Shown: positions 37,149 through 60,265, counted from the first letter of the stretch. The stretch is DNA of 64,000 bases from an uncultured Chloroflexia bacterium (GCA_963814375.1 CAWFCQ010000003.1:103393-167392), one strand, 5' to 3'. Program-made: numbers and translations. The notes: generated by a model not told the origin, from the sequence alone.

Positions 37149-37511
37149 TTGATGACTCCAACCCCGGACACCCCGGGCGAGAACGACCTGCGACGGCTCC
37201 GCACCCTCTACCGCGCTCTCGGCGACGAGACGCGGCTGCGCATGATCGGCCTCCTCGCCGAGATCGGACCGATGCCGGTCAACGAGCTCTCGTCACGCGT
37301 CGGTCTCTCGCAGCCGCTGATCAGCTGGCACCTGCGCATCCTGCGTCTGGCGGGCATCGTCGACACGCAGCGCCAGGGCCGGACGACGATCTGCCGGCTC
37401 CGCGTCGCCGCATTCGAAGAGCTGCACGACGCAGAGGCGCGCCTCGTTGCCGGGACGGCCGGCGTCGTCAACCGCGGCGGCGCGCAGGGAACGGTGCCCG
37501 ATGTCCGCTAG
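37149..37511 (+). CDS. ArsR/SmtB family transcriptional regulator
   Basis: Winged HTH with characteristic LGDETRLRMIGLL ... VNELS ... LSQPLISWHLRILRLAGIV. Confidence 0.85.
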   Translation: MMTPTPDTPGENDLRRLRTLYRALGDETRLRMIGLLAEIGPMPVNELSSRVGLSQPLISWHLRILRLAGIVDTQRQGRTTICRLRVAAFEELHDAEARLVAGTAGVVNRGGAQGTVPDVR

Positions 37512-38169
37512 CCAGCATGCCCCGGACCTTCGCGCGAAGCCGGTGGTGCCGGCCCGCTTCAAGCAGGCCGGTCGCGCGCTCCTGTCCCCGCTCGTGCGGC
37601 TGGCGATGGCGCTCCACCTGACACCCAACACGATCACCGTCATCGGCCTCGGCATCACGATCGTTGCGGCGCTGCTCATCGCGAACGACCTTCTGCTCAT
37701 CGGCGCGGCCGTGCTCGTCTTCGGGTCGATCCTCGACGCTGTTGACGGCGGGCTCGCTCGAGCCCAGGGCACCGGCACCGCCTTCGGCGGCTTCCTCGAC
37801 TCCACGCTCGACCGCACCGGCGAGGCGGTGGCCTACATCGGCATCGGCGTCTGGCTGCTGAGCAGCATGAGCGACCCGACCTGGCCGATGCTCGCCCTCA
37901 TGCTGGCATTGGCCGGATCCTTCCTCGTCAGCTACGCCCACGCCCGAGCGCAGGGCATCGGCCTGTCGGCCGACGTCGGCCTGGCGCCCCGCACCGAGCG
38001 GCTCATCCTCGTGATCGTGGGTGTGGCACTTGCAGGGTTCGGGTTCGAGGCCGGCCTCGTCGCCATCCTCGGCATCCTGGCGGTCCTGACCGCGATCACC
38101 GTCATCCAGCGCATCTGGCACGTCTGGCGCCTCACCGCGTCCGGCGCTCTCGACAGCAAGGAGAACTGA
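37501..38169 (+). CDS. pgsA: CDP-alcohol phosphatidyltransferase (phosphatidylinositol-phosphate synthase-like)
   Basis: CDP-OH_P_transf motif [30 protein letters not shown] and six TMS. It is immediately upstream of ino1 and acyltransferase/pimA genes, as in the mycobacterial pgsA1 locus. Confidence 0.8.
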
Positions 38170-38173
38170 ACAC

Positions 38174-39397
<1,224 letters not shown>

Positions 39398-39429
39398 TCG
39401 CGCTCGCGCGCGTCCGTTACCTTCAACGG

Positions 39430-40410
39430 GTGAAACGCCCATCGGACGGTGAAACGGCAAGCGAGCGGAAGCGGGAGCTCGTCACCTACTGGCTGTACCG
39501 CGCCGGCGAGGCCGTCATCAACGCCGTCCCGCGCCGCCTCGCCATGCCCGCCGCGGCGGCCGTCGGCAACGTGGCCTACGACCTGGCCGGCTCCAAGCGC
39601 GACCTCATCCAGGCCAACCTCGCTAGGCCGATGGGCCTGGCGCCGGACGACGCTCGCGTTCGCCACGCCGCGCGGCGCGCCTTCCGCAACTACGCCAAGT
39701 ACCTCGTCGACATGATGCGGATCGCCGAGACGAGCGAGGCGCAGGCCGCGGCGATGGTCGAGATCGGCAACTTCGAGCTCCTGGCCGAGGCGCAGTCGGA
39801 GGGCAAGGGCGTGCTGCTGTGCACCGTCCACGTCGGCGGCATGGATCTCATCGGGCCTGCCGTGAAGCGGCTCGGCGAATCGCTGCACGTGGTCGCGGAC
39901 GACACCACCTACGGCCGCCTGTACGACCACCTGGCCGATGCTCGAGCGCGTCAGAACATCTTCCTGATCGGGTGGCGGAACCTGCGGGACCTCTTCCGCG
40001 CGCTGCGAGAGGGCCACAACCTCGTGCTCTTCTGCGACGGTGGATACCGGTCGGGTGACGTGCCGATCGAGCTGCACGGCGAGGCCACCACCTTTCCGAT
40101 CGGCCCTGCGACGCTCGCCGCCAAGACCGGCGCCCCGATGCTTCCTGTAGCGTGCCGCAGGCTGCCGGACGACCGCTTCGAGGTGCGTGGGCTGCCGCTC
40201 GTACATTGCGAGAGCACCGAGCCGGCCGAGATCCAGCGCGCCACCCAGGCGATTGCCGACGCGCTGGCCGGGGTGATCGCGGAGGACCCGGGCCAGTGGT
40301 ACCTCTTCCGCCCGGTGTGGCCCACCACCGATGCCGATCGCGCGCGGGCGCGAGCCGCGCTCGCCGCCGCCCGCAACGGCGAGGACTGGACCAAGATCCC
40401 GGCGGCCTGA
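39430..40410 (+). CDS. LpxL/HtrB-family lipid acyltransferase (PatA-like) 1
   Basis: Lip_A_acyltrans pattern (YWLYRAGEAVINAVPRRL ... NLARPMGL ... HVGGMDL ... FCDGGYRSGD). The GTG start is at 39430. Confidence 0.7.
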   Translation: MKRPSDGETASERKRELVTYWLYRAGEAVINAVPRRLAMPAAAAVGNVAYDLAGSKRDLIQANLARPMGLAPDDARVRHAARRAFRNYAKYLVDMMRIAETSEAQAAAMVEIGNFELLAEAQSEGKGVLLCTVHVGGMDLIGPAVKRLGESLHVVADDTTYGRLYDHLADARARQNIFLIGWRNLRDLFRALREGHNLVLFCDGGYRSGDVPIELHGEATTFPIGPATLAAKTGAPMLPVACRRLPDDRFEVRGLPLVHCESTEPAEIQRATQAIADALAGVIAEDPGQWYLFRPVWPTTDADRARARAALAAARNGEDWTKIPAA

Positions 40411-41285
40411 TGCTCGCCCGCATCGGTCTCGAGATCGCCGACCGCGTCGCGGCGGCGCTGCCGGCCCCGGTCGCGTACGGCCTGGCCGACCTGGCCGGCG
40501 ACGCATGGCACCGATTCGCGCCGGGGAGGCGCCGCCTCGTCGCCGCCAACCTCGCCCGCGTGTGCGAGGCCACCGGGCGGCCATCGCGGGGCCGCGCCTT
40601 CCGCGCCCTGGTGCGGTCGGCATTCCGCAACCACGCGCGCTACTACCTCGAGCTGCTGCGCGGCCCGCACTACCAGCCAGGGCAGATCGACGAGATCGTC
40701 GACGTTCCCGAGTGGGCGAAATTCGAGAGCGTCCTGCGGTCAGGTCCGACCGTCCTGATCAGCTCGCATCTCGGCAACTTCGAGCCGTTCGGTGCGTTCC
40801 TGGCGGCGCACGGCTTCGTCGCCCTCTCGCCGATTGAGGAGATCGAGCCACGCGCGCTGTACGAGTTCCTCGCCGCGCGGCGCGGCACGGGCCGCATCGA
40901 TCTCGTGCCGCTGCGCGATGCCCGGACGGCGATCGGCCGGCGGCTGCGCGGTGGCGGCCTGGTCGGGATCATCGGCGACCGGCTGGTCGCCGGCGGCGGG
41001 CAGACGGTGAGCTTCTTCGGCCATCCCGCCAGCGTTCCGACCGGTCCGGCGGCCCTGGCGCTCCAGCACGGAGCGTCGGTGATCGTGGGTCGCAGCCTGC
41101 GCGCCGGGCCGGACCGATACATCGTCGAGGGTGAGGTGCTCGAGATCCCGAGCTCCGGCGATCGGCGAGCCGATACGCTCGCGCTGACCGAGCGGATCGC
41201 GGCGCGCTTCGAACGCGATGTGGCGGCCGCACCTGAACAGTGGTGGGGCGCCTTCCAGGCGTACTGGCCGGACCTCGAGGCATGA
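40410..41285 (+). CDS. LpxL/HtrB-family lipid acyltransferase (PatA-like) 2
   Basis: Paralogue of the upstream gene (AYGLADLAGDAWHRF ... NLARVCEATG ... SSHLGNFE ... IGDRLVAGGG). The start overlaps the upstream stop. Confidence 0.7.
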   Translation: MLARIGLEIADRVAAALPAPVAYGLADLAGDAWHRFAPGRRRLVAANLARVCEATGRPSRGRAFRALVRSAFRNHARYYLELLRGPHYQPGQIDEIVDVPEWAKFESVLRSGPTVLISSHLGNFEPFGAFLAAHGFVALSPIEEIEPRALYEFLAARRGTGRIDLVPLRDARTAIGRRLRGGGLVGIIGDRLVAGGGQTVSFFGHPASVPTGPAALALQHGASVIVGRSLRAGPDRYIVEGEVLEIPSSGDRRADTLALTERIAARFERDVAAAPEQWWGAFQAYWPDLEA

Positions 41286-42025
41286 CCCGCAATGGCGGCA
41301 CCCTTGGCAAGGCTGACATGCATCTCCACACGCTCTACTCGGACGGGACGGCGTCGGTCCAGGCGCTTCTCGATCACGTCGAGCGCGCCACGGATCTCGA
41401 CCTCATCGCCGTCACCGATCACGAGCGGATCGACGGCGCGCTCCGGGCGCGGGAGATGCACGCTGCCGGCGACTATTCGTACCAGCTGGTGGTCGGCGAG
41501 GAGATCACCACCCGGCGCGGCCACGTACTCGCGCTCTTCCTCACCGAGCGCGTGCCGGCGCTGCGCCCGTTGCCCGAGACGCTCGAACGGATTCACGACC
41601 AGGGAGCGATCGCCATCGCGGCTCACCCGCTTGCGCCGCTCACGCCGTCGCTCGGGAGTGGCTCGTTGCGCTGGTCTCACGGCGCCACCGATCCCCGGCA
41701 TCACCTCGACGCGATCGAGCTCATGAATCCGTCCACCGCCGGACGAGCGCGCCGATCGGCGCGCGAGGCGCTCCATGCCGAGCTGGCCGGCCCGGCGGCG
41801 GTCGGCAACTCCGACGCCCACGTGCTCGAGGGCGTCGGCTCCGCCTGGACATGGTTCCCCGGCTCGAGCGCCGGCGACTACCGCGCCGCCATCGCGGCGG
41901 CCACCACCCGCCCCGACGGCGCCTACTGGAGCCACCTCCACAACGTCGACGTCTACCGCCGTCAGCTGAGAGCCAAGGTCAGGCACCTGCGCCATACTCT
42001 GCGGCCAACGGGAGAGTGGCGGTGA
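41282..42025 (+). CDS. PHP-family (polymerase/histidinol-phosphatase) metal-dependent phosphoesterase
   Basis: PHP motif ADMHLHTLYSDG followed by His/Asp-containing blocks (VTDHERIDG, AAHPLAP, NSDAHV). It is ATGA-coupled to both neighbours. Confidence 0.7.
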   Translation: MTRNGGTLGKADMHLHTLYSDGTASVQALLDHVERATDLDLIAVTDHERIDGALRAREMHAAGDYSYQLVVGEEITTRRGHVLALFLTERVPALRPLPETLERIHDQGAIAIAAHPLAPLTPSLGSGSLRWSHGATDPRHHLDAIELMNPSTAGRARRSAREALHAELAGPAAVGNSDAHVLEGVGSAWTWFPGSSAGDYRAAIAAATTRPDGAYWSHLHNVDVYRRQLRAKVRHLRHTLRPTGEWR

Positions 42026-43206
42026 CAACCGGAGAGTCGGCGGTGGTGGACGTGTCAGTCCCTCCAACGCCTGCCAGGCCGCCCCTACGGATCGGGATCG
42101 TGAGCCCGTACGGCTACCCCCATCCGGGCGGGGTCAACGAGCACGTTCGCTTCACCTACGAGGCGATGAGCCGGTTGGGCCACGACGTCTGGATCATCAC
42201 CAGCAAGTACGGCCGTGAGCGCGAGAGCGAGGGCCACATCATCCGCCTCGGCACCGGCTGGGCGGCGCCGGCCAACGGCAGCGTCGGCCGCGTCACACTG
42301 GGGCTACGCTTCAAGCACCAGGCACGCGAGATCCTCGAAGCGCAGCGCTTCGACATCCTCCACTTCCACGAGCCGCTTGTGCCCTTCCTGTCCCCCACCA
42401 TGCTCGACGCCAGCGATACCGTGAATATCGGCACCTTCCACGCCTTCGGCGGCTTCAGCCCCAGCTACTGGATCGGCAGCCGATTCGCACGCCACCTGGC
42501 CGACAAGCTGGACGGCCGGATCGCCGTCTCGGGGGCGGCGCGCCACTTCATCAGCCGATACTTCCCCGGCGACTATCAGATCATCCCGAACGGCGTCGAG
42601 ATCGACCGATTCACTGAGGCCGAGCCGTATGAGGAGCTGCGGGACGGCACCCTGAACATCCTCTTCGTCGGCCGGTTCGAGGAGCGCAAGGGCCTGATTC
42701 ACCTGCTCAAGGCCTACCACCGCCTCCGCAAGCGCAAGGTCGACGCGCGGCTGCTCGTCATCGGCTCCGGACCGAAGCTGCGCGAGTACCGCCGCTTCAT
42801 CGGCCTGCGCGGCATTCGCGACGTCGAGTTCCTCGGACGCGTCAGCGACGAGGAGAAGGTCCGCTATTTCGCCTCGGCCGACATCTACTGCGCGCCAAAC
42901 ACCGGCCAGGAGTCGTTCGGGATCGTGCTGCTCGAGGCGATGGCCGCCGGCGTGCCGATCGTCGCTTCGGACATCCACGGCTTCAAGCGCGTCGTCGAGC
43001 GCAACGTGCAGGGCATCCTCTTCGAGCCCCGCAACCATCGCGCGCTGGCCGCGGCGCTCTACAAGCTGGCGCGCGATCCCGATCTGCGCCACGAGATGGG
43101 CGAAGCGGGCCGCCAGCGCGCCCCCGAGTTCAGCTGGGACCGGGTCACCGAGCAGATCGTCGATTACTACTACGAGGTCCGCGAACGGGTCAGCGCGGCG
43201 TCCTGA
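42016..43206 (+). CDS. pimA: GT4 glycosyltransferase, PimA-like (phosphatidylinositol alpha-mannosyltransferase)
   Basis: The N-terminus LRIGIVSPYGYPHPGGVNEHV is typical of PimA/GT4. The C-terminal EX7E region reads FGIVLLEAMAAGVPIVASD. The GTG start overlaps the PHP gene stop. Confidence 0.75.
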   Translation: MAVTTGESAVVDVSVPPTPARPPLRIGIVSPYGYPHPGGVNEHVRFTYEAMSRLGHDVWIITSKYGRERESEGHIIRLGTGWAAPANGSVGRVTLGLRFKHQAREILEAQRFDILHFHEPLVPFLSPTMLDASDTVNIGTFHAFGGFSPSYWIGSRFARHLADKLDGRIAVSGAARHFISRYFPGDYQIIPNGVEIDRFTEAEPYEELRDGTLNILFVGRFEERKGLIHLLKAYHRLRKRKVDARLLVIGSGPKLREYRRFIGLRGIRDVEFLGRVSDEEKVRYFASADIYCAPNTGQESFGIVLLEAMAAGVPIVASDIHGFKRVVERNVQGILFEPRNHRALAAALYKLARDPDLRHEMGEAGRQRAPEFSWDRVTEQIVDYYYEVRERVSAAS

Positions 43207-43237: not shown

Positions 43238-46200
43238 CTAGCCGGATGCTCCGGCTGTCTGAACGAGGTGCGACTCTGCCTCTTCGACCCTCGAATGAAA
43301 TCCGAAGGACGCAAACAGATCCCGCGCCTCGGTCAGCACGGCCCGTGCCTCCGGCTCGCCCAGGTCCACGAGGCACCGTCCAAGGCCGAGGAGGCTGTAG
43401 GCAAGCTCCCGAACGTAGCCGAGGGCCCTCATTCGCTCCGACGCGTCCACATACATGGGCAGCGCCGCCCGACTTCCGTCAGTGATCTCCGTGACGGCCG
43501 CGCGCGCTGAGGTGGCCGCGGCCACGTGCATGTCATACGTAGGTGTGATGCCGTCGATCAGCCGCGCCGCGAGCTCCACGTCGTCCAGCGCAAGGGCCGT
43601 CCGCACCGCAATTGGAAGCGCAAGGCAGTAGAAGAGGCTCTGGCGCGCGAACGGCACGTCGGAGACGGCATTGAGCGTGCGCCTGGCCCGCTCAGGGTCC
43701 CCTGATCGGAGCCATACGAGCGCCAGCCGGCCTTGCAGGATCTCGAGGTCGAGCGATTCGACCTCGTCGATGTGAGAGGCGGCCGTCGTTGCGCGTTCCA
43801 CCGCCTCGCCGAGCTCGCCGCGCTCCGCGAGGAAATGGCCGATGCACGTCGACGCGTCAACAAGGTCGAACATGTCTCCGAGCTGCAGGGAAGCGTCGGC
43901 GTGCTCGCGCCAGATGCTGATCCCTTCGTCGAGGCGACCTCGGTCGACGAGGATCTCGGCCGAGTTGCTGCGAATCAGCTCGGCAAGGGCGCTCATGTTG
44001 CGTTTGCGCGCGAAGGCGATCCCGTCGTCTAGGGCATCCAACGTCAACGCGGGCCCGTAAATGACCCACCGCAGAAGGGCGAGGTTATTCATCATGTTGG
44101 CGGCCAGGCGCCCAGCGCCACCCGCGATGAGCGCATCGACAGCTCGATCTGCCTCATCGATCCCATCTCTCTCCCCGCTCTCGGCCCGAGCCAGACCTCG
44201 GTAGCCATGGGCCTTGAGAGGCGGATCCAGGCCGGCCGCATCGGCCAGGGCAATCGCCTGGTCGGCGGTCTCGATCGCGGTCTGCTGCGATCCAGTGAGC
44301 CACTGGCATCGCGAGAGCTCACTCAGGGCCTGCACCCGGAGCCGGGGGTCATGACCCTCGGCGAGCAGCGCCACGGCCTCCGCGGCCAGATCGAGCGGGC
44401 TACCACCACCAATGCTGCGGGACACCTCGGTCTCCAGGATGAGAGCCTCGGCGAGCAGGTCGTAGCGCCCGGCTGCGCGGAGCGCCGCCTTGGCCGCCCC
44501 CAGCGCATCCGCGGCCTCGCGCAGCCGCATCTCCTGAAACGCAGCCTCGGCCCAGCGGATGAGGAGCTCCGGCCGATCCCAGTGTCCCTCCGGCGTCAGC
44601 TCCAGCGCACGCGTGAGGCGGGCCTCGGCCTGCGAAGCGTCGAGGCCCATGGCTCGTTCGCCGGCCATGCGCAGGTAGCGCCGCGACGCGTCAGTGAGGC
44701 GCTCGGTCGCCGATGCGTCACCCGCTCCCCGCGCGAGCTCGAGCGCGGCAAGCGCGTGATGCGCGAGAAGCTCGGCCATGTCCTCCACCCGCCCGGCCGC
44801 TCGTGCCTCGATCCAACCTGCCGCCGCCTCGTGCCGCCGCGCGCGCTCGGCTCGCGGGATCTGCTGGTACGCCACGTCACGGACAAGCCCGTGCCAGAAG
44901 GCATACTCGGCCTCCCCTTCCATCGTGCTGAGCCGTGACGGGCGAACGAGCTCCTTCCGCGAGAGCTCGTGCAGATCCTGCTGCACGTCCGCCGAAGGGC
45001 GACCGGCCATCTCCGCGAGGGCTCCCGCCCAGAAGACCTTGCCGATGACCGCAGCGTCCTGGAGCAAGCTCTTGCGGACGGGTGGCAGGGTGTCGAGCCG
45101 GGCGGCGATAAGCGCCTGCACATTGTCGGGAAACTCCCATCCGACGCCGATCCGGCTGTCGGCGATGAGTCGGACAAACTCCTCAGCGTACAGGGGGTTC
45201 CCGCCTGCCCGATCGACGATCGTCTGGCGCACGTCATCAGCACTGGACGATCGCTCCAGCAGCGCGATCACGAGCTCGTTGGTCTCGCCCGTCGTCAGTG
45301 GCGCCAGATTGATGGTGTGGGCGTTTCGGATTCCGCTGGTCCAGTCGGGGTTCGCCTCGAACAGCTCCGGTCGCGTGGTGCAGACGACGAGCAGTGGGAC
45401 GCCCTCAGCCCACTCGGCGAGGTGCGCGATGAACTCGAGAAGGGCGCTATCCGCCCAGTGCAGATCCTCGAAGACGAGCACTGCCGGCGCATCGGACGCC
45501 ATGGACTCGAGGAAGGTCTGCCACGCGCTGAAGCTCTCTTCGCGAGTGGTCGCCACGCCAGAGTCGATGCCTAGCAGCGGAAGGAGCCTGGCGCGGAGGA
45601 ACGCGCGCTGCTCGACCTCGGGGAGAGATGCCTCGAGCTTTTCGGCCGCGACATCGGGGGAATCGGTCTCGAAGATGCCCGCCTGCGCCTTGACGATCTC
45701 GCCGAGCGCCCAGAACGTGATGCCGTCGCCGTATGGCAGGCAACGGCCCTGGCGCCAAGTGATGAGATCGGGCAACTCGTCAATATGGGCGAACAGCTCG
45801 GCGCACAGCCGGCTCTTGCCCGCGCCGGGCTCGCCCACCAGGGTCACGAGCTGTGTCCGCGAGTCGCGCGCGCATCGGTCGAAGAGGCTGGTGAGCATCG
45901 CCCGTTCGGCCACACGACCGACGAACGGCGAGTCGTGGGTGCGGATGAGGTCGGTGCCGAAACGAGCCCGTGCCTCGACCGCACGGAACAACTCGACCGG
46001 CTCGGCCTTGCCCTTGAGCTCGACCGGTGGAAGCGGCTCATACACGAAGACTCGCTCCGTCTGGCGCTGCGTCTCCTCCGAGACGGCGACGCCGTCGATC
46101 GGCGCGGCTCCCTGGATCCGGGATGCGGTATTGACCACGTCGCCGGCGACGAACCCCTCGCCGAGGTCGGGCCGCGCTCCGAGGGTGACGAGGGCCTCGC

Positions 46201-46621
46201 CCGTGTTGATGCCGACTCGGACTCGGAACCCGAGGGTGGCATCGGCCGCGTTCAGCTCCGCCAGGCTCTCGATGATCCGCAGGCCAGACCGCACCGCGCG
46301 CTCCGCATCATCCTCGTGGGTGACCGGTGCGCCAAAGACGGCCATGACCGCGTCGCCGATGAATTTCTCGACGGTGCCGCCGAAGTGCTCGATGTCGGCC
46401 CGCAGCCGCTCGTGGTAGGGCCGGATGCGCGCCCGCACGTCCTCCGGATCAGCGCCCTCGGACGCGGCGGTGAATCCGACGAGATCGCAGAATAGGACGG
46501 AGACGACCTTGCGCTCCTCGTGCGCGGGCGTCGCGGCCTGAGGAGCGAGAGGCGCGCCGCACCGTCCACAGAAGGTGAAGCCGTCCGGGTTCTCCCCGGC
46601 GCAGCTCGGGCACTGCACCAC
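43238..46621 (-). CDS. multidomain regulator: Zn-ribbon + class III adenylate cyclase + AAA ATPase + TPR repeats (STAND-like)
   Basis: 1127 aa. The N-terminus CPSCAGENPDGFTFCGRCG is followed by a cyclase domain (VLFCDLVGFT ... FIGDAVMAVFGAP ... RVGINTGE), a P-loop (LVGEPGAGKSRL) and a long helical TPR-like C-terminus. Confidence 0.8.
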   Translation of the reverse strand: MVQCPSCAGENPDGFTFCGRCGAPLAPQAATPAHEERKVVSVLFCDLVGFTAASEGADPEDVRARIRPYHERLRADIEHFGGTVEKFIGDAVMAVFGAPVTHEDDAERAVRSGLRIIESLAELNAADATLGFRVRVGINTGEALVTLGARPDLGEGFVAGDVVNTASRIQGAAPIDGVAVSEETQRQTERVFVYEPLPPVELKGKAEPVELFRAVEARARFGTDLIRTHDSPFVGRVAERAMLTSLFDRCARDSRTQLVTLVGEPGAGKSRLCAELFAHIDELPDLITWRQGRCLPYGDGITFWALGEIVKAQAGIFETDSPDVAAEKLEASLPEVEQRAFLRARLLPLLGIDSGVATTREESFSAWQTFLESMASDAPAVLVFEDLHWADSALLEFIAHLAEWAEGVPLLVVCTTRPELFEANPDWTSGIRNAHTINLAPLTTGETNELVIALLERSSSADDVRQTIVDRAGGNPLYAEEFVRLIADSRIGVGWEFPDNVQALIAARLDTLPPVRKSLLQDAAVIGKVFWAGALAEMAGRPSADVQQDLHELSRKELVRPSRLSTMEGEAEYAFWHGLVRDVAYQQIPRAERARRHEAAAGWIEARAAGRVEDMAELLAHHALAALELARGAGDASATERLTDASRRYLRMAGERAMGLDASQAEARLTRALELTPEGHWDRPELLIRWAEAAFQEMRLREAADALGAAKAALRAAGRYDLLAEALILETEVSRSIGGGSPLDLAAEAVALLAEGHDPRLRVQALSELSRCQWLTGSQQTAIETADQAIALADAAGLDPPLKAHGYRGLARAESGERDGIDEADRAVDALIAGGAGRLAANMMNNLALLRWVIYGPALTLDALDDGIAFARKRNMSALAELIRSNSAEILVDRGRLDEGISIWREHADASLQLGDMFDLVDASTCIGHFLAERGELGEAVERATTAASHIDEVESLDLEILQGRLALVWLRSGDPERARRTLNAVSDVPFARQSLFYCLALPIAVRTALALDDVELAARLIDGITPTYDMHVAAATSARAAVTEITDGSRAALPMYVDASERMRALGYVRELAYSLLGLGRCLVDLGEPEARAVLTEARDLFASFGFHSRVEEAESHLVQTAGASG

Positions 46622-46653
46622 GGGCGGAGTCTACGGTGGCCCGGGTGGCGTGC

Positions 46654-47657
46654 CTACCCCTCGAGCGGCTTGCGCCAGGTGCCGAACGTCTTCTCGGGCA
46701 CGAACCCGAGGGACCGATACAGATCGGTCGCGCCGGTCAGGCTGGTGGCGTCGACGCCGAGGCCGGCCGAGGTGTAGCCGTCCTCGCGTGCGGCAACGAG
46801 GGAGGCCGACAGCAGCGCGCGGGCGAGACCCCGACGGCGCCAGGCCCGGCGCACCGAGACCCCGGCTACATAGACGCGCGAGCGGCCGTACAGCGTGTTC
46901 TCCTCGGTCGGGACGGTCGTCATGATCACGCCGGCGATCTGGTCGCCGTCCCAGCCGATGCGCCAGTAGCGCGGATCGACGTTCTGCGGATCGGCCTGGA
47001 AGCGCTTCCAGTCCTCGTCGGTCGGCGGGCTGTGGCCCCACTCGTCGCGGAACGCCTCGTTCGCGGCGTCCCACAGCGCGCGGTACTGATCGCGCGTCGT
47101 CGGTCGAACCTCGAGACCATCCGGCATGCGGAGCCGCCTCGAGCCCTTCGAGCGTCGGGGCAACCATGTCGAACCAGTAGCGCACCGGCTCGTAGCCGTT
47201 GGCACGCAGGAGGGCGACGTTGCCGGCATCGGTCTCGACGCCCTCGGAGCCGAACCACTTCGGCGCGACGCCGTCGTGCTCGGCGGCGATCTCGCGCAGC
47301 CGTGCCTCGTTGTGGCGGAGCAGTGCCGAGGCGATGCCCCGACGCCGCCAGTCGGGATGCACGAAGCCGAACAGCTCGTACGAGCGCCCGCCCTCCAACA
47401 GCTCCTGCCAGAAGACGCGAGCGTAGGCAACGAGCGTGCCGTCCACCTCCGCCAGGATGATGTCGCGCTCCGGGTCGCAGTTCACCAACGTGGCGTAGCT
47501 GCGCCGCATGTCGTCGAGCGTCTGGACCTCCTCGAGGCCGTCCGCCTGCGTGGACCGCCATCCAGACCGCGAGCATGCCGGCGAGGTCCTCGTCGCCACG
47601 GAAGCGGCGGAACCGCAGGCCCGGAATGGCCGGCGCGGCTGCCAGTGCGACGGTCAT
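46654..47657 (-). pseudogene. two-domain GNAT acetyltransferase (MshD-like), unit C, with apparent frameshifts
   Basis: The start MTVALAAAPAIPGLRFRRF (ORF 46926..47657) shifts to the ORF 46631..47599 frame (N-GNAT, HPDWRRRGIASALL). The C-GNAT (VSVRRAWRRRGLARALL ... TFGTWRKPLEG) is in ORF 46654..47430. Confidence 0.55.
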
Positions 47658-48646
47658 GAGGACGCTTCCTCCATCGGCTTGCGCCAGGCGTTGAACCGAT
47701 CGGCGACGGCGAAGCCCGCCGCCTCGTACAGGCCGAAGGCGCCCTGGTTGTTGTCGCCGTCGACGCCCAGCGCGGCGCTCGTCATGCCGCGCTCGCGCAG
47801 CAGGAGCAGGGATCGGGCGATCAGGGCGCGAGCCAGCCCACGCCGCCGCCAGGCGCGTCGCGTGAAGACCGAGTCGAGCCAGCCGCGCTGGATGCCGAGC
47901 GCCTCGTTCTCGGCGGGGTAGATGGCGTTGACCACGCCGCCGGCAATCTCGTCACCGTCGAAGGCGATCAGCCACAGCGACGGATCCGCCTCGGGCGCCT
48001 CCAGGAATCGGCGCATGGCGGCCTCCGACTCGTCGGACCCGCCCCAGTGATCGCGGAAGGACTCGCGGTTCGCACGCCACAGCTGCTGGTGGAGATCGGG
48101 CGTGATCGGCCGCAGCTCGAGGCCGTCGGGCAGCGGCAGCTCCTCGATGGCGTCGAGATCGGGCCGGACCATGTCGAAGAACCAGCGCACCACCTCGTAG
48201 CCGCTTCGCTCCAGCAGGAAGGCGCCCGATCGCTCCTCGCCGGCGAACGAGCTGAACGCTCGCTGGCGGTCGGTCTCGTGGGTGGCGGCCAGCTCTCGCG
48301 CGCGGCGCTCGTTGTCAGCCAGCAGCGCCGAACCGATGCCCCGACGTCGATGGGCGGGATCGACGGCGCCCCACAGGCGGTGCTCGCGTCGCTGCCCGTC
48401 GCGCGTGTCGATCCAGTCCTGGCCTGCGAACCCCACCGGCTCCCCGTCGAGCTCGGCGATGACGAAGTCGCGCGCCGCGTCGAACTGCTCGGATGGATGC
48501 TCGAGGTGGGCGCGCTCGCCCTCCTCGGTGGTGCGCTCGTCGATGTCGTCGGCGGCGTTCTCCGCGTTCACGATGCGGGCGATCGCCTCGACGTCTGTGG
48601 CGATGTCGAATGGCCGGATCCGGAGCCCGGCGGGTGCGGAGATCAC
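47654..48646 (-). CDS. two-domain GNAT acetyltransferase (MshD-like), unit B, intact
   Basis: About 330 aa from a GTG (VISAPAGLRIRPF). N-GNAT motif AHRRRGIGSALL, linker VRWFFDMVRPDLD, C-GNAT motif FTRRAWRRRGLARALI, ending RFNAWRKPMEEASS. GTGA/ATGA overlaps with both neighbours. Confidence 0.7.
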   Translation of the reverse strand: MISAPAGLRIRPFDIATDVEAIARIVNAENAADDIDERTTEEGERAHLEHPSEQFDAARDFVIAELDGEPVGFAGQDWIDTRDGQRREHRLWGAVDPAHRRRGIGSALLADNERRARELAATHETDRQRAFSSFAGEERSGAFLLERSGYEVVRWFFDMVRPDLDAIEELPLPDGLELRPITPDLHQQLWRANRESFRDHWGGSDESEAAMRRFLEAPEADPSLWLIAFDGDEIAGGVVNAIYPAENEALGIQRGWLDSVFTRRAWRRRGLARALIARSLLLLRERGMTSAALGVDGDNNQGAFGLYEAAGFAVADRFNAWRKPMEEASS

Positions 48647-49675
48647 GAGCGCTCCTCCATCGGCTTGCGCCAGGCGGTCGCGCGCTCGGTCACGGCGAAC
48701 CCGAACTTCTCGTACAGCTGCAGCGCACCGCTGGGATTGTCGGCGTCGACCCCGAGCGCCGCCGCACTCCATCCCGCGCTCTGCCAGCACGTGCAGGCTG
48801 CGCGCGATGAGGGCCGAGGCGAGCCCGCGCTTGCGCCACGCCCGGCGGGTGAAGACGCTGTCCAGCCAGCCGCGCTTGCGACCGATCGCCGCGTTCTCGT
48901 GCGGGTAGATGGTGTTGACGACGGCCGCGGCGACCTCGTCGCCCTCCCAGGCGACGACCCACATCGACGGGTCGAACTCGGGCGAGTCCCGGTAGCGCGC
49001 GAACGCGTCCTCGGACTCGTCGCCGCCACCCCAGTGGTCGCGGAAGGCCTCGACGTCCGCGCGCCAGATGGTCAGCAGCTCGGACTCCGCGACCGGGCGC
49101 ACCTCGATCCCGTCCGGCAACGCCGTGATCTCCGGCAGGTCCCGATCGAGCCCGGGACGCTCCATGTCGAAGAACCAGCGCACCTGCGCATACCCGGAGC
49201 GCTGCGCCAGTGCGTTGGCACCGACGTTGCGCTCGTCGCACCACAGGCCGTGGACGAGCGGTCGGTCGGTCGTCCTGCGACGCCGCCAGCTCGCGCTGGA
49301 TGCACGTGGTTGGCGCGCAGCAGAGTCGTCCCGATCCCACGTCGTCGGTAGGCGGGATCGACCGCGCAGCCGCTGCGGTACTCACGCAGCCCGTCGTTGG
49401 TGTCGACCCAGTCGCGGTTCGCGTGCGCCACGACGCGGCCGTCGAGCTCGGCGATGGTCACGTCACGCTCGGGGCGGAAGCTCGTCGGATGGATGCGCGT
49501 AGTGAGCCACCCGCTCTTCCACCGTCTCGCGGTAGGTCTGGCCATCGGCCTCCCACTGCGCGTTCTGGATACGCACCATCTCGGGGATGTCGGCCTCGCC
49601 CGCGTACGGACGCAGGACGAGGCCCGGGATGTCGGCCGCCGCAGCGGCCGCATCGGTCTGCATGTCTGCCTTCAT
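48643..49675 (-). pseudogene. two-domain GNAT acetyltransferase (MshD-like), unit A, with apparent frameshifts
   Basis: The start MKADMQTDAAAAAADIPGLVLRPY (tail of ORF 49463..50383) is followed by the N-GNAT in ORF 49072..49653 (AYRRRGIGTTLL). The C-GNAT is in ORF 47654..49183 (first 140 aa) and its end is in ORF 48643..49029 (AALGVDADNPSGALQLYEKFGF ... WRKPMEERS). Confidence 0.5.
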
Positions 49676-50475
49676 CAGCCCACCCTCTTGAGCTTGCCGG
49701 TGCGCTTCGCGTAGCGCTCGGCGATGCCGAAGACGTAGACCCCGAGCGGGATGAGCACGATGCCCATCACCACCAGCGGCCAGACGTCGTGCCACAGGGC
49801 GGTGACCGACGTGCCCTTGATCAGGCCCTCGCGGATACCGTCGAGGACGTAGGTGCCCGGCGAGAACTGGGCGACGAACTGCATCCACTCCGGCAGCGTC
49901 TCGACCGAGTAGTACACCCCGCTGAAGAGCAGGATCACCGACTGGATCACGAAGACCATCTGGTCGCCCCGCTCGACGTACAGCAGCGGCAGGATGGCGG
50001 CCATCATGCCGACCCCGACGAAGCTGATCGAGCCCAGCGCCAGGAAGACGCCTGCCGTCAGGAAGTTGCCGCCGCTGAACTCCAGGTCGAAGAAGAGCAG
50101 CATCACGCCCAGGATGATCACCATCTGGATCACCGCGTAGGCCACCGCGAAGGCGGTCGAGCCGACGAGCTGCGTGTAGCGGCGCACCGGCGCCATGAAG
50201 GTGTACTCGAGCGTTCCCTCCCAGCGCTCCCAGGTGACCGTCTCGCCGATGAAGCCGAAGACGATCGAGAGGAAGTTCCAGAAGATCGTGCCGATCACGA
50301 GCACCTGGAGCAGCGCCTGGTCGTCCTGGGCCACGCCGATGAAGGCCACCGACAGGGCAGCCGCCAGCGAGTAGACGAGCCATGCGACTTCCCAGCCCCA
50401 GTAACGCTTGGTCAGGTTGAAGTTGCGCTCCACGAAGGCGAGGCTCGCCCGCAGCTCGCGCGTTGCGATCGTCAT
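49675..50475 (-). CDS. ABC-2 type transporter permease
   Basis: 266 aa with six TMS. ABC-2 family pattern (TKRYWGWEVAWLVYSLAAALS ...). Confidence 0.75.
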   Translation of the reverse strand: MTIATRELRASLAFVERNFNLTKRYWGWEVAWLVYSLAAALSVAFIGVAQDDQALLQVLVIGTIFWNFLSIVFGFIGETVTWERWEGTLEYTFMAPVRRYTQLVGSTAFAVAYAVIQMVIILGVMLLFFDLEFSGGNFLTAGVFLALGSISFVGVGMMAAILPLLYVERGDQMVFVIQSVILLFSGVYYSVETLPEWMQFVAQFSPGTYVLDGIREGLIKGTSVTALWHDVWPLVVMGIVLIPLGVYVFGIAERYAKRTGKLKRVG

Positions 50476-50486
50476 CGGTTCATCCC

Positions 50487-51404
50487 TTAGTCGTCGTCGT
50501 TCTCTTCGTCCTCGTCGACATCGTCGTCGAGGCTCTTGCCGGTGAACGTCATGAACACGCTCTCCAGCGTCGGCTCCTTGCCGTAGTCACGAGCGACCAT
50601 CGCCTTCAGCTCGTCCGGCGTTCCCTCCGCCACCATCCGTCCGTCGTTGATGAGCGCGATCCGGTCGCACAGCCGCTCGGCCTCGGCGAGATCGTGCGTC
50701 GTCAGCACGATCGTCGCGTCGTGCGTGTCGCGGACCTCCTCGATGAAGGTCTGCACGTCGAGCTTCGACCGCGGATCCAGCCCGGTGGTCGGCTCGTCGA
50801 GGAGCAGCACGGTGGGGCTCGTCAGCAGCGCCCGCGCGATCGCGACCTTCTGCTGCATGCCACGGCTCATCTGCTCGACCGGCCGGTCCAGCCGCTTCTC
50901 GCCCACGCCGAGCCGGTTCAGGATCGCGACGACCTGGACCCTCGCCTTCTTCGCATCCATCCCGTACAGCCGGGCCGCATAGGCCAGGTTCTCGTGCGGG
51001 CTGAGCTTCTTGAAGAAGGCCGCGTCCACGCTCACCCGGTTGATGAGCTGCTTGACGGCCATCTCCTCGCGCTCGACGTCGTGCCCCAGGACCTCGACCC
51101 GGCCGCCGTCCAGGGTCAGCAGCGTGCTGACCAGGCGAATGAGCGTGCTCTTGCCGGACCCGTTGGCGCCGAGGATCCCGTAGATCTCTCCACGCCGGAT
51201 CGACATGCTCACGTCGTTCACGGCCACCACCGACTTCTTCTTGCGACCGACCACGAATCGCTTCGTGGCGCCGTCGAGAAGCAGCGCCGGCAGCTCGCCC
51301 GCCGGCGGAGGACCCACGCGGCGCAACGGCTCGCGCGCCGGGAGCTGCGTCGGGTCTGCGGTCGGCATCGGTGCCGTCTTCGGTTCAGTCATGACCTCGG
51401 TCAT
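50487..51404 (-). CDS. ABC transporter ATP-binding protein (ABC-2/DrrA-like)
   Basis: Walker A GANGSGKST, Q-loop, signature MSRGMQQK, Walker B LLLDEPTTGLD, H-loop. The start is assumed at MTEVMTEPK; the longer ORF to 51536 would translate the upstream repeat region. Confidence 0.85.
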   Translation of the reverse strand: MTEVMTEPKTAPMPTADPTQLPAREPLRRVGPPPAGELPALLLDGATKRFVVGRKKKSVVAVNDVSMSIRRGEIYGILGANGSGKSTLIRLVSTLLTLDGGRVEVLGHDVEREEMAVKQLINRVSVDAAFFKKLSPHENLAYAARLYGMDAKKARVQVVAILNRLGVGEKRLDRPVEQMSRGMQQKVAIARALLTSPTVLLLDEPTTGLDPRSKLDVQTFIEEVRDTHDATIVLTTHDLAEAERLCDRIALINDGRMVAEGTPDELKAMVARDYGKEPTLESVFMTFTGKSLDDDVDEDEENDDD

Positions 51405-51520
51405 CGTTCGTTCCGTTTCGCTTCGTTCGATTCGTTCGCTCGTCGTTCGGGCCACCAGATGGGAAGAGCCGCGACCCGTTGGCTCCGGGTCCGCGGCTCT
51501 TGCTTTCGCCCCCCGTAAGC
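51404..51520 (-). promoter_or_regulatory. structured leader: GAACGAA-type heptamer repeats plus a 13-bp stem hairpin upstream of the ABC exporter operon
   Basis: On the minus strand, the hairpin (plus coordinates 51464-51501, aagagccgcgaccc / gggtccgcggctctt) is followed by about six (c)GAACGA(a) repeats (51404-51450) ending at the ATG. Confidence 0.35.
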
Positions 51521-51888
51521 CGATACGGGGCAACAAAAAACCGTGGACCCGATCCGGCCCACGGCTCCGGTGGCTTCGGCGGCTTCACCGCCGTTGCTCT
51601 ACCTCGACCAGGGCACAGATCTCCCGTCGGCAGCGCTGCCGGTAGGCGCGCTCCCGTGCGTCATGAAGGCGCAGATGAGATTCATCGCCGTCAGATCGCT
51701 CCTCGTTCGTTGATGGTCGCCGGACACCGCCGGGCAGCGTCGGCTGCAGTTGGTGGTGCCGGCGGAGTCTACGACCGGCCCGAGACGAGTGTCAAGGTTT
51801 CTACGTCGTTTGTCTCATACCGTGAGGCGTTGGCCCTCGGCACAAGGCCGGGTATCGTGGATGCCCATCGAGCGGGAGAGCAGAACCC

Positions 51889-53300: not shown

Positions 53301-56300
53301 TCAGCCGCCCTCGGGCATCGGTCCGGTGGCAACCTCGGGCTCGCGTTCGCGCAGGCGCTCCCACCAGCGGCGGCCGCTAATCGCGAACCAGCCGGCGGCG
53401 ACGGCGGCCATCACGCCCACCGCGGCCTTGAGCGCCCCCACTGACACGAGCTCCTCGCGTGACCCGGTCGGGGGGTCGGGAAACTGGAAGCCGAAGTTCC
53501 ACGGCGGCAGCGCGCGAGCCGCGTTGATATACCAGTCCGGCATCGGCAGGGCGGAGCCCAGCGGGAAGATGGCGATCCCGACGATCACCGCCAGCGCCAG
53601 GTAGCCGAGCGCCACGTCACGCCACGCGGGGCGGCGCAGCAGCTCGTCGACGATGTAGGCGACAGCGATCATCGCGAAGATCACCGCCGTGAGGTAGTGG
53701 TAGGCGAAGGTGGCGCGCTCGATCCGGATCCACGGCACGAACTGGAAGGCGAAGGCCGCCACCACCAGCACCAGCGCCGGCGAGCGGCGCTTCCAGGCCA
53801 GCACGGTGCACGCGGCGAGCGCGGGAATGCCGGCCCAGAACAGGACGGGGTTGCCACCGTTGTAGATGACCGCCAGCAGCTCGTTGTCGAACGAGCCGGA
53901 GTAGAACCAGGTCGGCTTCAGCGCCAGCGGCCAGCTCCACCACGGCGAGGCGCTGTCGTGGCCCGCGGTCAGGTTGAAGTGGTAGCCGAACATCTGCGCG
54001 TGCAGCTCGTCGATCGACCAGCCGTAGCCGGGGCCGCCGCCGATGGCCCAGTCGTGGCCGAGCTGGAGATACGGGATGTAGGTGAGCCCGTAGACGACGA
54101 GCGGGATGACGATCAGGCAGGCGCCCACCCACGGCCAGGCGAAGCCGCCCATCTCGGCGGGTCCATACCAGCGCGCGTCGGAGCGCGGGTCACGCAGCGA
54201 GCGCCACGCCCGCCACGCGACGAGCATTCCCGCGACGCCGATCATGATCCAGACCGGCCAGCCGACCTGGGCGCCGCGCGCGAGGAGCCCGAACAGCAGC
54301 TCCACCGCGCCGTTCGGTTCCCGCGCATCGGGCACCTGGTCGAACGCGATCACGAAGGCCAATCCAACCCCGGCGAAGACCGCGATGCTGGCCGGGATCG
54401 CGGTCAGCACCTCGCGGCGATCGAGGCGAATCGGCCGCACCCAGGTGATCGTCAGCGCCAGCGCGGTCAGGCCGACCATGACGAGCAGGAACGGCCACGG
54501 CGCCCCCACCCCGCCGACGACGGTCGCCAGCGCCACGAGCGCCACCAGGAACAGCCGCCCGAGGTTGGATCTCGCCAGGACGAGCACCAGGAGGCCCGCC
54601 AGGGCATAGAAGCCGACCCACTTCGTCGAGGCCGCCAGGCCGATGAGGACGCCGGTCAGCGGCAGCGCCCACCACGCGCTGCGCGCCCATCGGCCTGACC
54701 AGATCTGCCAGAAGAGCAGGTACGCGGCGACGATGAAGGTCGCCACGAAGATGTCGTTCATGCTGATCCGGCTCATGACGTAGCTCATCGGGTCGAGAGC
54801 GACGAAGGCGGCGGCCAGGATCGCGATGCGGCGGCGGCCGAACATGGTGGCGACGAGCAGGTAGACGAGCGCGACCAGCGCGACCCCGAAGAGGACGCCG
54901 GCGAGGCGCCACGCGAACGCGTTGCTGCCCGCGTCGATCGCGACGAGCGAGGCGGCGCCATCCTCGGCGGCGGTGCTGACCAGCAGGCGCCCGGCGTCGT
55001 CATCCTGCGAGGTGGTGGCGATGTCGAACGCCATGGAGAGCGGCGTGCCCGGCAGCTCGGTGGCGTCGAAGGCGGCGAGACCAATCGTCCCGTCGCCTCG
55101 CGTCTCGGCGTGCGGCTCGAGCGTCCACGTCTCGGGGACGCCCGCCGCCGTCGTGCCCGCGATGTAGGTCAGCCCGGCGACCCGCTGCTCGGCGATGAGC
55201 AGCGGCGCACCCGGCAGCGGGACGAGGCCGAGTGTGCACGGGTCGCCGCTGCAGCGACCGTTGCTGCCGTCCGCGTCCAGGAAGGCGAGGCCGCCGATCG
55301 TGGCGGGATGCTCGGCTGTCGCGGCCAGCGGACCGGTGAGGGCCAGCACCTCCTGTGAGTCGCCTCGATCGCGCACGAGGATCGGACCGATGAGAGGCGC
55401 CTCGACCGGTTCCGCCTCGTACTCCGGGCGCGGCTCCAGCGTGCTCGCATCGAGATACTCGACGGTGTTGCGCGCCGGGTCGGAGACGACCACCCAGTCC
55501 GGCTCCTCCTCCTCGACCCCCACGACGAGGCCGATGCCGCCGTACATGCCCTCGGCGCTCGCGAGGACCTCGTCGGTGGCCCGCTCGATGACGGCCACGC
55601 CGTCCGTCCCGCGCAGCAGGATCGGATCGCTCGCCTCGGACGGCACGAGTACCTGGTTCACGGTCTCCAGCCCGGACTCGATCGATGGACCGGCCGGCGG
55701 CGCGCGGCCGTCCGGCGACGCCAGCAGACCGGCGAGCTCATAGGTCTCGACCGTTCCGCTGTCAGCGCGGCCAACGAGGAGGCGGTAGGCCTCGGCGTCA
55801 TACGCCAGCGAGGCGATCGGGCCGCCGGCGCTCCAGCTCGCGACCTCCTCGCCCGTATCGGCGTCCATCGCGGTGATCGTCGCGCCCCCAGCCGCAAGGA
55901 GGGCGATGGAGCGATCGTGGCCGACGGACGCGCGCCGGGGCGCGACGGTCAGCGCGCTCGAGGCGGATTCCAGCTCGGTGCTGCCGACGACGCGGTTCGG
56001 ATCGGCGGCGACGATGCCGCCTGCGATGAGGTACTTCGCCAGCATCGGGTGGGTCCACTCGTACACGTCGCGCGTCCAGTCGTTGTTCCAGTTGGCGAGG
56101 AACTCGGCGGCCGAGCGCGCGTGGTAGACCTCGTCGAAGTGCTGGCTGCGCGGGGTGTCGAGGCGCCAGAGGCGGAAGACGAGCGCGAACACCACGAGCG
56201 CCAGCAGGGCGAGCGCGTCGCGCCGGTCGAGGCGGCGTGACGGCTCGTGCAGGTAGGCGTCGGCGGGATTCGGGGCGAGCCACACGGCACCGGCAGCCGC

Positions 56301-57860: not shown

Positions 57861-57965
57861 CAGCGGCGGCGCCCCCGTGGAGCGCGCCGTGTCGTATCGC
57901 ACGCCAAGGTGGCGGTGAGTATACATCGGCCCTCGGACGGCCCCGGCGCGCGCCGGGTTTCGTCC

Positions 57966-59513: not shown

Positions 59514-60265
59514 CCGAATCCGATCGCCCGCGCCTCACGTTCTTCTTCCCCGCGTTCAACGAGGAGGAGAACGTTGAGGAGACGGTGCGCCGCGCCCTGG
59601 ACGATGTGGGCTCGCTGGTGGATGGCTCGATCGAGGTCCTCGTTGTCGACGACGGATCGACCGATCGGACGCGCGAGCTCGGCGAGGCCATGGCGGCCGC
59701 GGATCCGCGCGTGCGGGTCTTCTCGCAGGAAAACCGCGGCTACGGGGGCGCGCTGAGGGCAGGGTTCGAGAACTCGACCGGCGAGCTGATCTCCTTCTCG
59801 GATGGCGACCTCCAGTTCGACCTGCGCGAGATGTCCCGCCTGCTCGATCGGCTCGCCGACGATCGGCGCCCGGTCGATGTGGTCATCGGGTATCGGCGCA
59901 AGCGCCGCGATCCGCCGCACCGGATCTTCATCGCCAAGACCTACAACGCGATCGTCTCGGTGCTGTTCGGCCTGCGGGTGCGCGACATCGACTGCGCCAT
60001 GAAGCTCTTCCGGCGCGAGGTCTTCGATGGCCTGCCGCTCACCACCGACTCACCGTTCCTCTCGGCGGAGCTGCTCATCAAGCTCAACGCGCGACGAGAG
60101 CGCATCGCCCAGGTAGGGGTCACCCACTATCCCCGCGCCGCGGGGACGAACACCGGCGCCTCGTTCCGCAAGATCGTGCGCACCTTCCGCGACATCGGGA
60201 AGCTGCGTCTCGCGCTATGGACCCGGCGCTCCGAGGTGCTCGGGACGCCACGCAAGCGAGGCTAG
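59510..60265 (+). CDS. GT2 polyprenol-phosphate mannose synthase-like (Ppm1/DPM1-like)
   Basis: GT2 motifs (FFPAFNEEENV, VVDDGSTDRT, DGD) with DPM1-like collinearity. The GTG start overlaps the upstream stop (GTGA). Confidence 0.75.
   Translation: MTESDRPRLTFFFPAFNEEENVEETVRRALDDVGSLVDGSIEVLVVDDGSTDRTRELGEAMAAADPRVRVFSQENRGYGGALRAGFENSTGELISFSDGDLQFDLREMSRLLDRLADDRRPVDVVIGYRRKRRDPPHRIFIAKTYNAIVSVLFGLRVRDIDCAMKLFRREVFDGLPLTTDSPFLSAELLIKLNARRERIAQVGVTHYPRAAGTNTGASFRKIVRTFRDIGKLRLALWTRRSEVLGTPRKRG

Follow-up and report, generated by a model that had tools for sequence, protein, structure and literature searches.

A class-wide ABC-2 exporter and tandem-repeat GNAT operon in Candidatus Limnocylindria, with three ancient paralogs and six probable assembly frameshifts

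We analyzed a 64,000-nt stretch of DNA from an uncultured Chloroflexia bacterium (GCA_963814375.1, CAWFCQ010000003.1:103393-167392), referred to hereafter as the window. Six tightly packed genes between 43238 and ~51400, all on the minus strand, encode an ABC ATPase, an ABC-2 permease, three paralogous two-domain GNAT proteins (units A, B and C) and a large protein with a nucleotide cyclase domain. The interpretation that we favor, and hold to be somewhat better than even, is that the transporter and GNAT genes represent an operon found throughout the class Candidatus Limnocylindria, in which a DrrAB-like exporter is combined with three ancient tandem-repeat GNATs that would act in N-acetylation and export of amines. 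Units A and C are frameshifted in the window; the six frameshifts are very probably errors of a long-read metagenome consensus, each the insertion of one base, and A, B and C are most likely all intact in the organism. The parts are of known kinds (a tandem-repeat GNAT triplet and a DrrAB-like ABC-2 pump), while this combined member is new and uncharacterized. A literature search found no paper that deals with the operon or with a linkage of tandem GNATs and ABC-2 transporters.

Results

Organization of the operon

The initial annotation of the window, made from its sequence alone, described six co-directional genes in close packing, and this was confirmed by the gene calls, the junctions and a single promoter-like site (Table 1). 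It also gave all overlaps or gaps as 30 nt or less. That is correct from the ATPase gene to unit C, where the ATPase and permease genes are separated by 11 nt, the permease gene and A overlap by 1 nt (TGATG), and A/B and B/C overlap at GTGA and ATGA, respectively; it does not hold for the gap between C and the cyclase gene, which is 32 nt. The longest open reading frame (ORF) of the ATPase extends to 51536. The start at MTEVMTEP is favored by the alignments of orthologs, which begin at residue ~44 of the longest ORF, and by the gene calls of sibling assemblies, in which the ATPase has 304 aa.

Only one sigma-70-like site was present in the region from 42.8 to 52.2 kb, at 51795-51766, 5' of the ATPase gene. 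Terminator-like sites were not detected between the six genes, and a search of the window against Rfam, aimed at leaders or riboswitches 5' of the operon, gave 0 matches. Divergent LiaF/PspC genes begin at 51889 on the plus strand. By its layout, with the genes in one direction, joined by overlaps or narrow gaps and uninterrupted by terminator-like sites, the set is predicted to be a single operon. The G+C content of the window is 66-73%.

Table 1. Positions of the operon genes, frameshift sites and neighboring features in the window
Feature	Position	Strand	Remarks
ABC ATPase gene	50487-51404	-	~305 aa, acidic C-terminal tail; Pfam ABC_tran 2.1e-32
ABC-2 permease gene	49675-50475	-	266 aa; Pfam ABC2_membrane 2.8e-18
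GNAT unit A	48643-49675	-	tandem-repeat GNAT; 342 aa after removal of four extra bases
GNAT unit B	47654-48646	-	330 aa, intact; GTG start inside GTGA overlap
GNAT unit C	46654-47657	-	333 aa after removal of two extra bases; start in ATGA overlap with B
Zinc ribbon/class III nucleotide cyclase/AAA_16 (STAND-type) protein	43238-46621	-	1127 aa, helical-repeat C-terminus
Promoter-like site TTGACA-18-TAGACT	51766-51795	-	upstream of ATPase gene; consensus match only
Junction of 262-nt deletion relative to sibling strains	50476-50489	-	between ATPase and permease genes
Extra bases in A	49480 (C), 49300 (T), 49273 (A), 48766 (T)		four-way alignment with siblings
Extra bases in C	47549 (G), 47128 (C)		four-way alignment with siblings
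+1 frameshift in CCA-adding enzyme gene (cca)	~2990-3010	-	PolyA_pol head domain split 3-85 / 89-126
+1 frameshift in hypothetical gene	~12520-12540	-	codon-periodicity hidden Markov model
+1 frameshift in trehalose-phosphatase gene otsB	~32640-32680	-	codon-periodicity hidden Markov model
+1 frameshift in ABC ATPase gene	36786		extra G; found by comparison with L029
CDP-alcohol phosphatidyltransferase, myo-inositol-1-phosphate synthase, two PF03279 (PatA/HtrB-type) acyltransferases, PHP phosphoesterase, GT4	37447-43206	+	convergent operon
1689-aa PMT-like GT-C (PIG-U-like N-terminal region), TMEM260-like O-mannosyltransferase-type protein, GT2	53301-60265		large mannosylation/envelope neighborhood

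The GNAT units are tandem-repeat proteins outside the MshD family

Each of the three units contains two GNAT stretches recognized by Pfam, and the units match one another by tblastn with E values of 1e-54 to 1e-63, so that their paralogy is not a matter of chance. Three tandem two-domain paralogs, as originally proposed, are therefore present. An interdomain linker RWFFDM, which had been ascribed to every unit, occurs in A and B; the corresponding residues of C are RYWFDM.

The units had been likened to mycothiol synthase, MshD, a comparison that stands for the fold and falls for the family. Unit B aligned end to end with the MshD model TIGR03448 (residues 18-317 against positions 10-290 of 294) and scored 62.6 bits, short of the equivalog cut-off of 163.1. 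When unit B was compared with all PDB sequences by phmmer, 7Q3A (2e-28, residues 44-318) and 3TT2 (2e-21) were retrieved and MshD was not. The NCBIfam cut-off and the PDB sequence search rule out membership of MshD. An AlphaFold2 model of unit B (predicted local distance difference test score 92.9) was searched with Foldseek. The best match was again 7Q3A, the MAB_4324c protein (4.5e-30, TM-score 0.87, 29% identity), followed by 3TT2 from Sphaerobacter, MshD, VipF, the glucosamine N-acetyltransferase GlmA, the clavulanate tandem GNAT and Eis. The TM-scores between the unit B model and MshD (2C27) were 0.74/0.81 at 20% identity.

Acetyl-CoA P-loops are found in both domains, as RRRGIG (pyrophosphate-binding) in the N-domain and RRRGLA in the C-domain. 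An FRDHWG motif is present in all three ortholog groups, as is the tyrosine of an LY..GF motif, which is restricted to the C-domain; the N-domain has no catalytic tyrosine. The P-loops, FRDHWG and the C-domain LY motif are each at least 90% conserved in the A, B and C ortholog groups. In MshD only the C-domain is catalytic and the substrate is held between the domains (PMC4964394). Like MshD (Rv0819; PDB 1OZP and 2C27), which also has two GNAT domains of ~150 residues and P-loops in both, the units appear from their motifs to carry the catalytic machinery in the C-terminal half only, with a substrate cleft between the domains. Unlike MshD, which is encoded by a single gene, they occur as three paralogs, in another phylum, with other signature motifs and with no context of mycothiol (MSH) biosynthesis in the neighborhood. 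As judged by sequence and model, the units resemble MshD in fold and probable chemistry, and lie outside its family.

The closest solved structure by both sequence and fold is MAB_4324c of Mycobacterium abscessus, which shares with the units the full-length two-GNAT build and, in the phmmer alignment, an FRDHWG-type motif at the start of the C-domain. Sequence similarity and predicted structural similarity to 7Q3A place the units, over their full length, in the tandem-repeat GNAT type of MAB_4324c and 3TT2. MAB_4324c is an active N-acetyltransferase and a direct, drug-induced target of WhiB7, whose regulon responds to stress and antibiotics; it acetylates amikacin weakly and makes a modest contribution to amikacin tolerance (PMC10727445). 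The differences are that MAB_4324c is a single actinomycete gene, 29% identical to unit B, and is not reported as a triplet or as joined to an ABC-2 operon.

The triplet is ancient and unit B is always retained

The best matches of unit B in the protein collection were 65-74% identical, and the named ones were from Candidatus Limnocylindria or Chloroflexota. A scan of species-representative genomes gave 28 loci (designated by L numbers), nearly all in metagenome-assembled genomes of Limnocylindria or other Chloroflexota, the closest being 86% identical. On these matches the source lineage is Candidatus Limnocylindria (Chloroflexota), not an actinomycete.

The order A-B-C was found in ~20 species, each gene being in a single frame and typically overlapping the next by 4 nt. 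The proteins sort into three separate ortholog groups across the class, which places the triplication before the class. Identities within a genome are 47-56% for A/B, 42-46% for B/C and 35-39% for A/C. It had been suggested that the duplication could be dated by aligning the three units; given the age of the triplication, dating by alignment of the copies of one genome is impossible. The same class-wide groups rule out a recent duplication. The order ATPase, permease, GNATs is retained even in the distant loci L015, L027 and L028.

Not every locus has the full triplet. Of unit A, L006 keeps a remnant of 30 residues (8101-8193) and L012 nothing; unit C is a remnant in L013 (4527-4634) and is absent in L018 and L019. 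Unit B was present in every related locus. This pattern suggests that B is indispensable and that A and C are accessory.

Unit A of the window showed an unusual relationship to its orthologs. It is only 59% identical to A of L001 (6988-8004), the closest GTDB genome, compared with 85% for B and 76% for C, while the three units show similar divergence in most other genome pairs that were compared. Window A also stands unusually close to B (56% identity), and sliding-window identities placed it between the A and B groups. Relative to L001, the ratio of nonsynonymous to synonymous substitution rates (dN/dS) was 0.47, with dS raised as well. Allele replacement or partial gene conversion of A is possible. 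As an account of the divergence from L001, gene conversion or relaxed selection was superseded by the strong constraint on A that is seen against the 98%-identical siblings (see below).

The exporter and a small basic ORF

An ABC_tran ATPase gene adjoins an ABC2_membrane permease gene in all loci compared. The permease is 78-91% identical among Limnocylindria loci and 62-63% identical in L015, L027 and L028. The best NCBIfam matches of the two proteins were the DrrA and DrrB models, with scores below both subfamily cut-offs (233.7 bits against 312.45 for TIGR01188, drrA, and 53 bits against 223.05 for TIGR01247), so that subfamily membership fails. The pair resembles the daunorubicin resistance exporter DrrAB in having a separate ATPase and an ABC-2 permease of the six-transmembrane type, here of 266 aa. 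It differs in these scores, in the extra 65-aa basic ORF of most relatives and in the lack of an antibiotic gene cluster beside the locus. A Wzt-like C-terminal carbohydrate-binding domain was not found in the ATPase by Pfam.

The DNA that is missing from the window between the ATPase and permease genes encodes a 65-aa Arg-rich protein (MTVQTNADLRAVLSFVEERQERLRRTNLLV...RRWIGRNLVRLGAWVAAEPMRSARAR; L029:5896-6093). This small ORF can be recognized in ~20 related Limnocylindria loci, at 50-79% identity, and weakly in L027/L028. The window, L001, L009 and L015 lack it. The ends of the deletion in the window share the microhomology ACGA..TAA. A Pfam search of the small ORF gave no match. The protein may be an unrecognized accessory subunit or regulator of the transporter.

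Frameshifts in units A and C

The initial annotation described A and C as frameshifted and B as intact, and as a statement on this sequence it is accurate: frameshift-aware protein-to-DNA alignment to orthologs identified six shifts, all +1, of which four are in A and two are in C. Unit A is read in four successive frames and unit C in three. To these we compared three sibling assemblies, L029, L030 and L031 (ENA ERZ25039550, ERZ25039541 and ERZ25039591), which were found through a protein search with the cyclase (a 100%-identical entry, P0121, and its cluster relatives) and are 96-98% identical to the window over ~21 kb.

None of the six extra bases recurs in L029, L030 or L031; they are seen in the window alone. 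Deletion of one base per site restores A to 342 aa and C to 333 aa, with no stop codons. The three genes of L030 are intact (A, 342 aa; B, 330 aa; C, 333 aa) and overlap by 4 nt. In L029, A (342 aa) and B are intact and C has a +1 shift of its own, 18 nt from one of the window sites. The corrected genes are under purifying selection. Corrected A differs from L029 at 41 positions, 32 of which are third codon positions (dN/dS 0.12), and corrected C at 37 positions, 25 of them third codon positions (dN/dS 0.15); these ratios and the third-position bias indicate that selection acted on A and C until essentially the present. The 11 differences in B are all synonymous, with 0 non-synonymous. Corrected A retains 82 of the 85 residues that are invariant among orthologs and corrected C retains 101 of 105, the range seen in intact orthologs.

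Shifts of the same kind occur elsewhere in these data. A codon-periodicity hidden Markov model run over the window recovered the GNAT shifts and flagged +1 shifts in other genes (Table 1); one further candidate, at ~13420, proved to be an ordinary gene boundary. The extra G at 36786 is common to the window and L030 and absent from L029 and L031. Taken together, these sites suggest an indel-error rate for the window of roughly one per 6-15 kb. The siblings are not free of such changes. L031 has ~30 private single-base indels, mostly insertions, in 2.8 kb covering the cyclase gene and C (equivalent to 44868-47622 of the window), and the cyclase, phosphatidylinositol (PI) synthase and acyltransferase genes are fragmented in L030 and L031 where those of the window are intact.

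It is because the extra bases are private to the window, the corrected genes are under purifying selection, other +1 shifts occur in the window and the siblings have indels of their own that we judge the six frameshifts to be, very probably, consensus errors. In the sibling assemblies the frameshifts in effect vanish, and they are probably not a property of the organism.

Several observations weigh against this judgment. The insertions are strongly clustered, with 6 in 2 kb and ~1 in the other 21 kb shared with the siblings, which a uniform error model does not explain, and none of the six extends a homopolymer. We saw no shared sequence motif at the six sites. Mixing of strains was considered as a cause of the clustering. 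Since the ATPase (6.5%) and LiaF (5.1%) genes are more divergent between strains and have no frameshift, strain mixing alone is an insufficient cause, and a strain-mixture consensus error as the sole source is not supported. Local clustering of insertions is nevertheless a feature of this data set, as the burst of ~30 indels in L031 shows. Real inactivation is also biologically plausible, given the natural loss of A or C elsewhere among the lineages.

If the frameshifts were real, A and C would be young pseudogenes and B alone would function, as a step in a recurrent reduction of the triplet. We consider this unlikely. The recurrent deletion of A or C in L006, L012, L013, L018 and L019, with B always kept, is what such a process would produce, and the shifts are confined to A and C, sparing B, the transporter genes and the 1127-aa and 1689-aa neighbors; that no insertion extends a homopolymer points the same way. 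Set against this are the absence of the extra bases from three siblings, one of which has all three genes intact, and the low dN/dS values, since four independent indels in 1 kb would not be expected without accompanying neutral substitutions. Moreover, six of six shifts are +1, as are at least three others in housekeeping genes of the window, and private bursts of indels are seen in sibling assemblies. Of the features that mark a pseudogene, A and C show disruption of the frame; recurrence in sibling assemblies and relaxed selection were not observed.

Two gene fusions were also noted. In L001 (8001-9983), B and C read as one 660-aa in-frame protein in which a 2-nt difference removes the stop codon of B, and in L031 (5095-7113) the gene call joins A and B into a protein of 672 aa. 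Both are probably errors rather than real fusions, as the assemblies are noisy.

The cyclase/AAA_16 gene

Pfam recognized a zinc ribbon, Guanylate_cyc (1.9e-20) and AAA_16 (4.5e-20) in the 1127-aa protein, followed by a helical region. By eye, the metal-binding Asp residues of the cyclase (FCDLVGFT, IGDAV) and an NTASR motif appear to be present. No TPR model passed on the window protein, and TPR_12 is precomputed for many close homologs; no helix-turn-helix (HTH) was detectable in the 1127 residues. The mycobacterial proteins of the Rv0386 type are multidomain cyclases of the form cyclase-ATPase-TPR(-LuxR). With these and with the TIGR03903 TOMM fusions the 1127-aa protein shares a class III cyclase, an AAA_16/STAND ATPase and helical repeats; unlike them it has an N-terminal zinc ribbon and no detectable HTH. 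Its score against TIGR03903 was 230.8 bits (cut-off 705.75), over the cyclase-ATPase part only.

The protein had been described as a STAND-like cyclase regulator attached to the operon. The cyclase and AAA_16 architecture is confirmed; the attachment is not. In 24 of 25 other species that have this neighborhood the cyclase is absent here, and GNAT C (or B, if C is lost) is followed by the convergent GT4 gene. A cyclase at this position was found only in the species of the window (the siblings) and in one relative with an 83%-identical protein. The next homologs are 53-66% identical, and those that are named are labeled Gaiellaceae, Thermoleophilia or Actinobacteria; one homolog (63% identical) adjoins hydrogenase-maturation and UDP-sugar genes. 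L015 also has a cyclase ~1 kb downstream of its GNATs, with 42% identity. This adjacency we took as coincidence, as the family is extremely abundant (8000 of 8000 scored candidates were below E 1e-20). The distribution suggests that the cyclase gene was inserted between GNAT C and GT4 in this lineage only, probably by recent horizontal transfer. It may be co-transcribed with the module, and by synteny it is not a conserved component or regulator of it.

A second gene with a class III cyclase domain, which shares 31% identity with that of the 1127-aa protein, is located at 3879-5291 (+).

Genomic neighborhood

The operon core in Limnocylindria (ATPase, usually the 65-aa ORF, permease, A, B, C) is part of a larger block. 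On one side are GT2, TMEM260-like and 1689-aa PMT-like GT-C genes, with PspC and LiaF/DUF4097 on the opposite strand. On the other side is the convergent operon (Table 1), which every Limnocylindria locus that was examined contains. Its gene content is that of a putative phosphatidylinositol-mannoside (PIM)-type pathway and resembles the mycobacterial pgsA1-patA-pimA operon for phosphatidylinositol mannosides. ARAGORN also placed a tRNA-Arg(GCG) at 40335-40407 (-), opposite the reading of a PF03279 acyltransferase gene; the prediction is probably spurious.

The transporter and the GNATs stay together in the distant loci L015, L027 and L028, where the PI genes are no longer linked to them. An arylamine N-acetyltransferase (PF00797) adjoins the ABC-2 and tandem-GNAT module in L027 (8984-10009, -) and L028 (8749-11982, -), and in L028 a metallo-beta-lactamase-fold domain does so as well. 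In L027, an RsgA GTPase gene lies between the permease and the GNATs. No biosynthetic cluster was found in the neighborhood of the operon.

Discussion

From the sequences we infer acetyl transfer, a class of substrate and coupling to export. The C-terminal domains of the units would N-acetylate amino groups using acetyl-CoA, and the acceptor would be a small, amine-bearing molecule held in the interdomain cleft; polyamines, aminosugars and aminocyclitol-type compounds are candidates. MAB_4324c is reported to acetylate small polyamines. The three paralogs would act on different, non-redundant amines or substrates. Export of the substrate or the product through the co-translated ABC-2 pump would result in tolerance, detoxification or secretion. 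Acetylation and export of amines is favored because the transporter-GNAT link outlasts the link to the PI genes and because arylamine N-acetyltransferase and metallo-beta-lactamase-fold genes are neighbors of the module in L027 and L028, neighbors that weakly favor a xenobiotic theme.

Three points count against this interpretation. No member of the GNAT set has an assigned substrate, so that the activity and its coupling to export are a proposal; the physiological substrate of MAB_4324c is itself uncertain; and envelope and phosphatidylinositol-lipid genes flank the operon in all Limnocylindria, which raises the possibility of an endogenous envelope substrate.

The last point leads to the alternative that would have the GNATs N-acetylate or N-acylate a lipid or glycan intermediate that contains aminosugar or inositol and is made by the adjacent PI/PIM-type operon, with the ABC-2 pump flipping or exporting it by analogy with Wzm/Wzt-type exporters. 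This is rather unlikely, though it is the best of the alternatives on function. The convergent PI-type operon accompanies the module throughout Limnocylindria, with PspC/LiaF, GT-C, TMEM260-like and GT2 genes on the other side, and the tandem GNATs of known substrate include MshD (Cys-GlcN-inositol) and GlmA (glucosamine). Within one class, however, adjacency to PI genes may be mere inherited synteny, and it is this link that was not kept in L015, L027 and L028. The PI genes and the operon are also on opposite strands, and the ATPase lacks the carbohydrate-binding domain of the Wzt type. A more specific proposal, that the pump, the 65-aa protein and the GNAT triplet are tied to the PI/PIM-type operon and make and export an N-acetylated inositol or aminosugar compound, with the paralogs acting in sequence or as a hetero-oligomer, appears improbable; if true, the compound could be a small mycothiol-like molecule or a surface glycolipid of a kind that only Actinomycetota are known to have.

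It was originally proposed that the locus resembles a self-resistance or export cassette for a small N-acetylated metabolite. On this model, recently duplicated MshD-like genes would be controlled by the attached cyclase/STAND regulator. The genes are co-directional, the 32-nt gap before the cyclase gene has no terminator-like site, a GNAT beside a DrrAB-like pump does resemble resistance cassettes, and a cyclase recurs near the GNATs of L015. Acetylation with export remains a reasonable functional class for the operon, and self-resistance does not, as there are no biosynthetic genes nearby. The duplication is ancient, the units are not MshD and the cyclase is missing at this position in 24 of 25 other species; in so abundant a family it is no surprise that a cyclase should adjoin the GNATs a second time by chance. 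The synteny comparison has already largely refuted this proposal, which we regard as very improbable.

That A, B and C are true mycothiol synthases is scarcely credible: many homologs carry that name in Joint Genome Institute (JGI) automatic annotation, the TIGR03448 alignment is end to end and genes for inositol-1-phosphate synthase and a GT4 are nearby, but the model score, the PDB search and the identity to 2C27 all speak against it, the GT4 fails the MshA model (91 bits, cut-off 462), the neighbors fit synthesis of PI/PIM lipid rather than MSH, and the host belongs to Chloroflexota while mycothiol, to our knowledge, is known only from Actinomycetota.

Our results have a cautionary side, in that clustered single-base insertions in long-read metagenome assemblies such as these mimic pseudogenes. 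What looked like decaying tandem duplicates are, very probably, consensus errors in ancient selected paralogs, and what looked like an attached regulator is probably a clade-specific insertion. There remains a strongly conserved and uncharacterized set, an ABC-2 exporter, a small basic protein and three putatively non-redundant MAB_4324c-like acetyltransferases, in an abundant uncultured class of soil bacteria. If a substrate is found, it would give a function to a family of thousands, much of which is mislabeled "mycothiol synthase", and it might inform amine detoxification or envelope chemistry in Chloroflexota.

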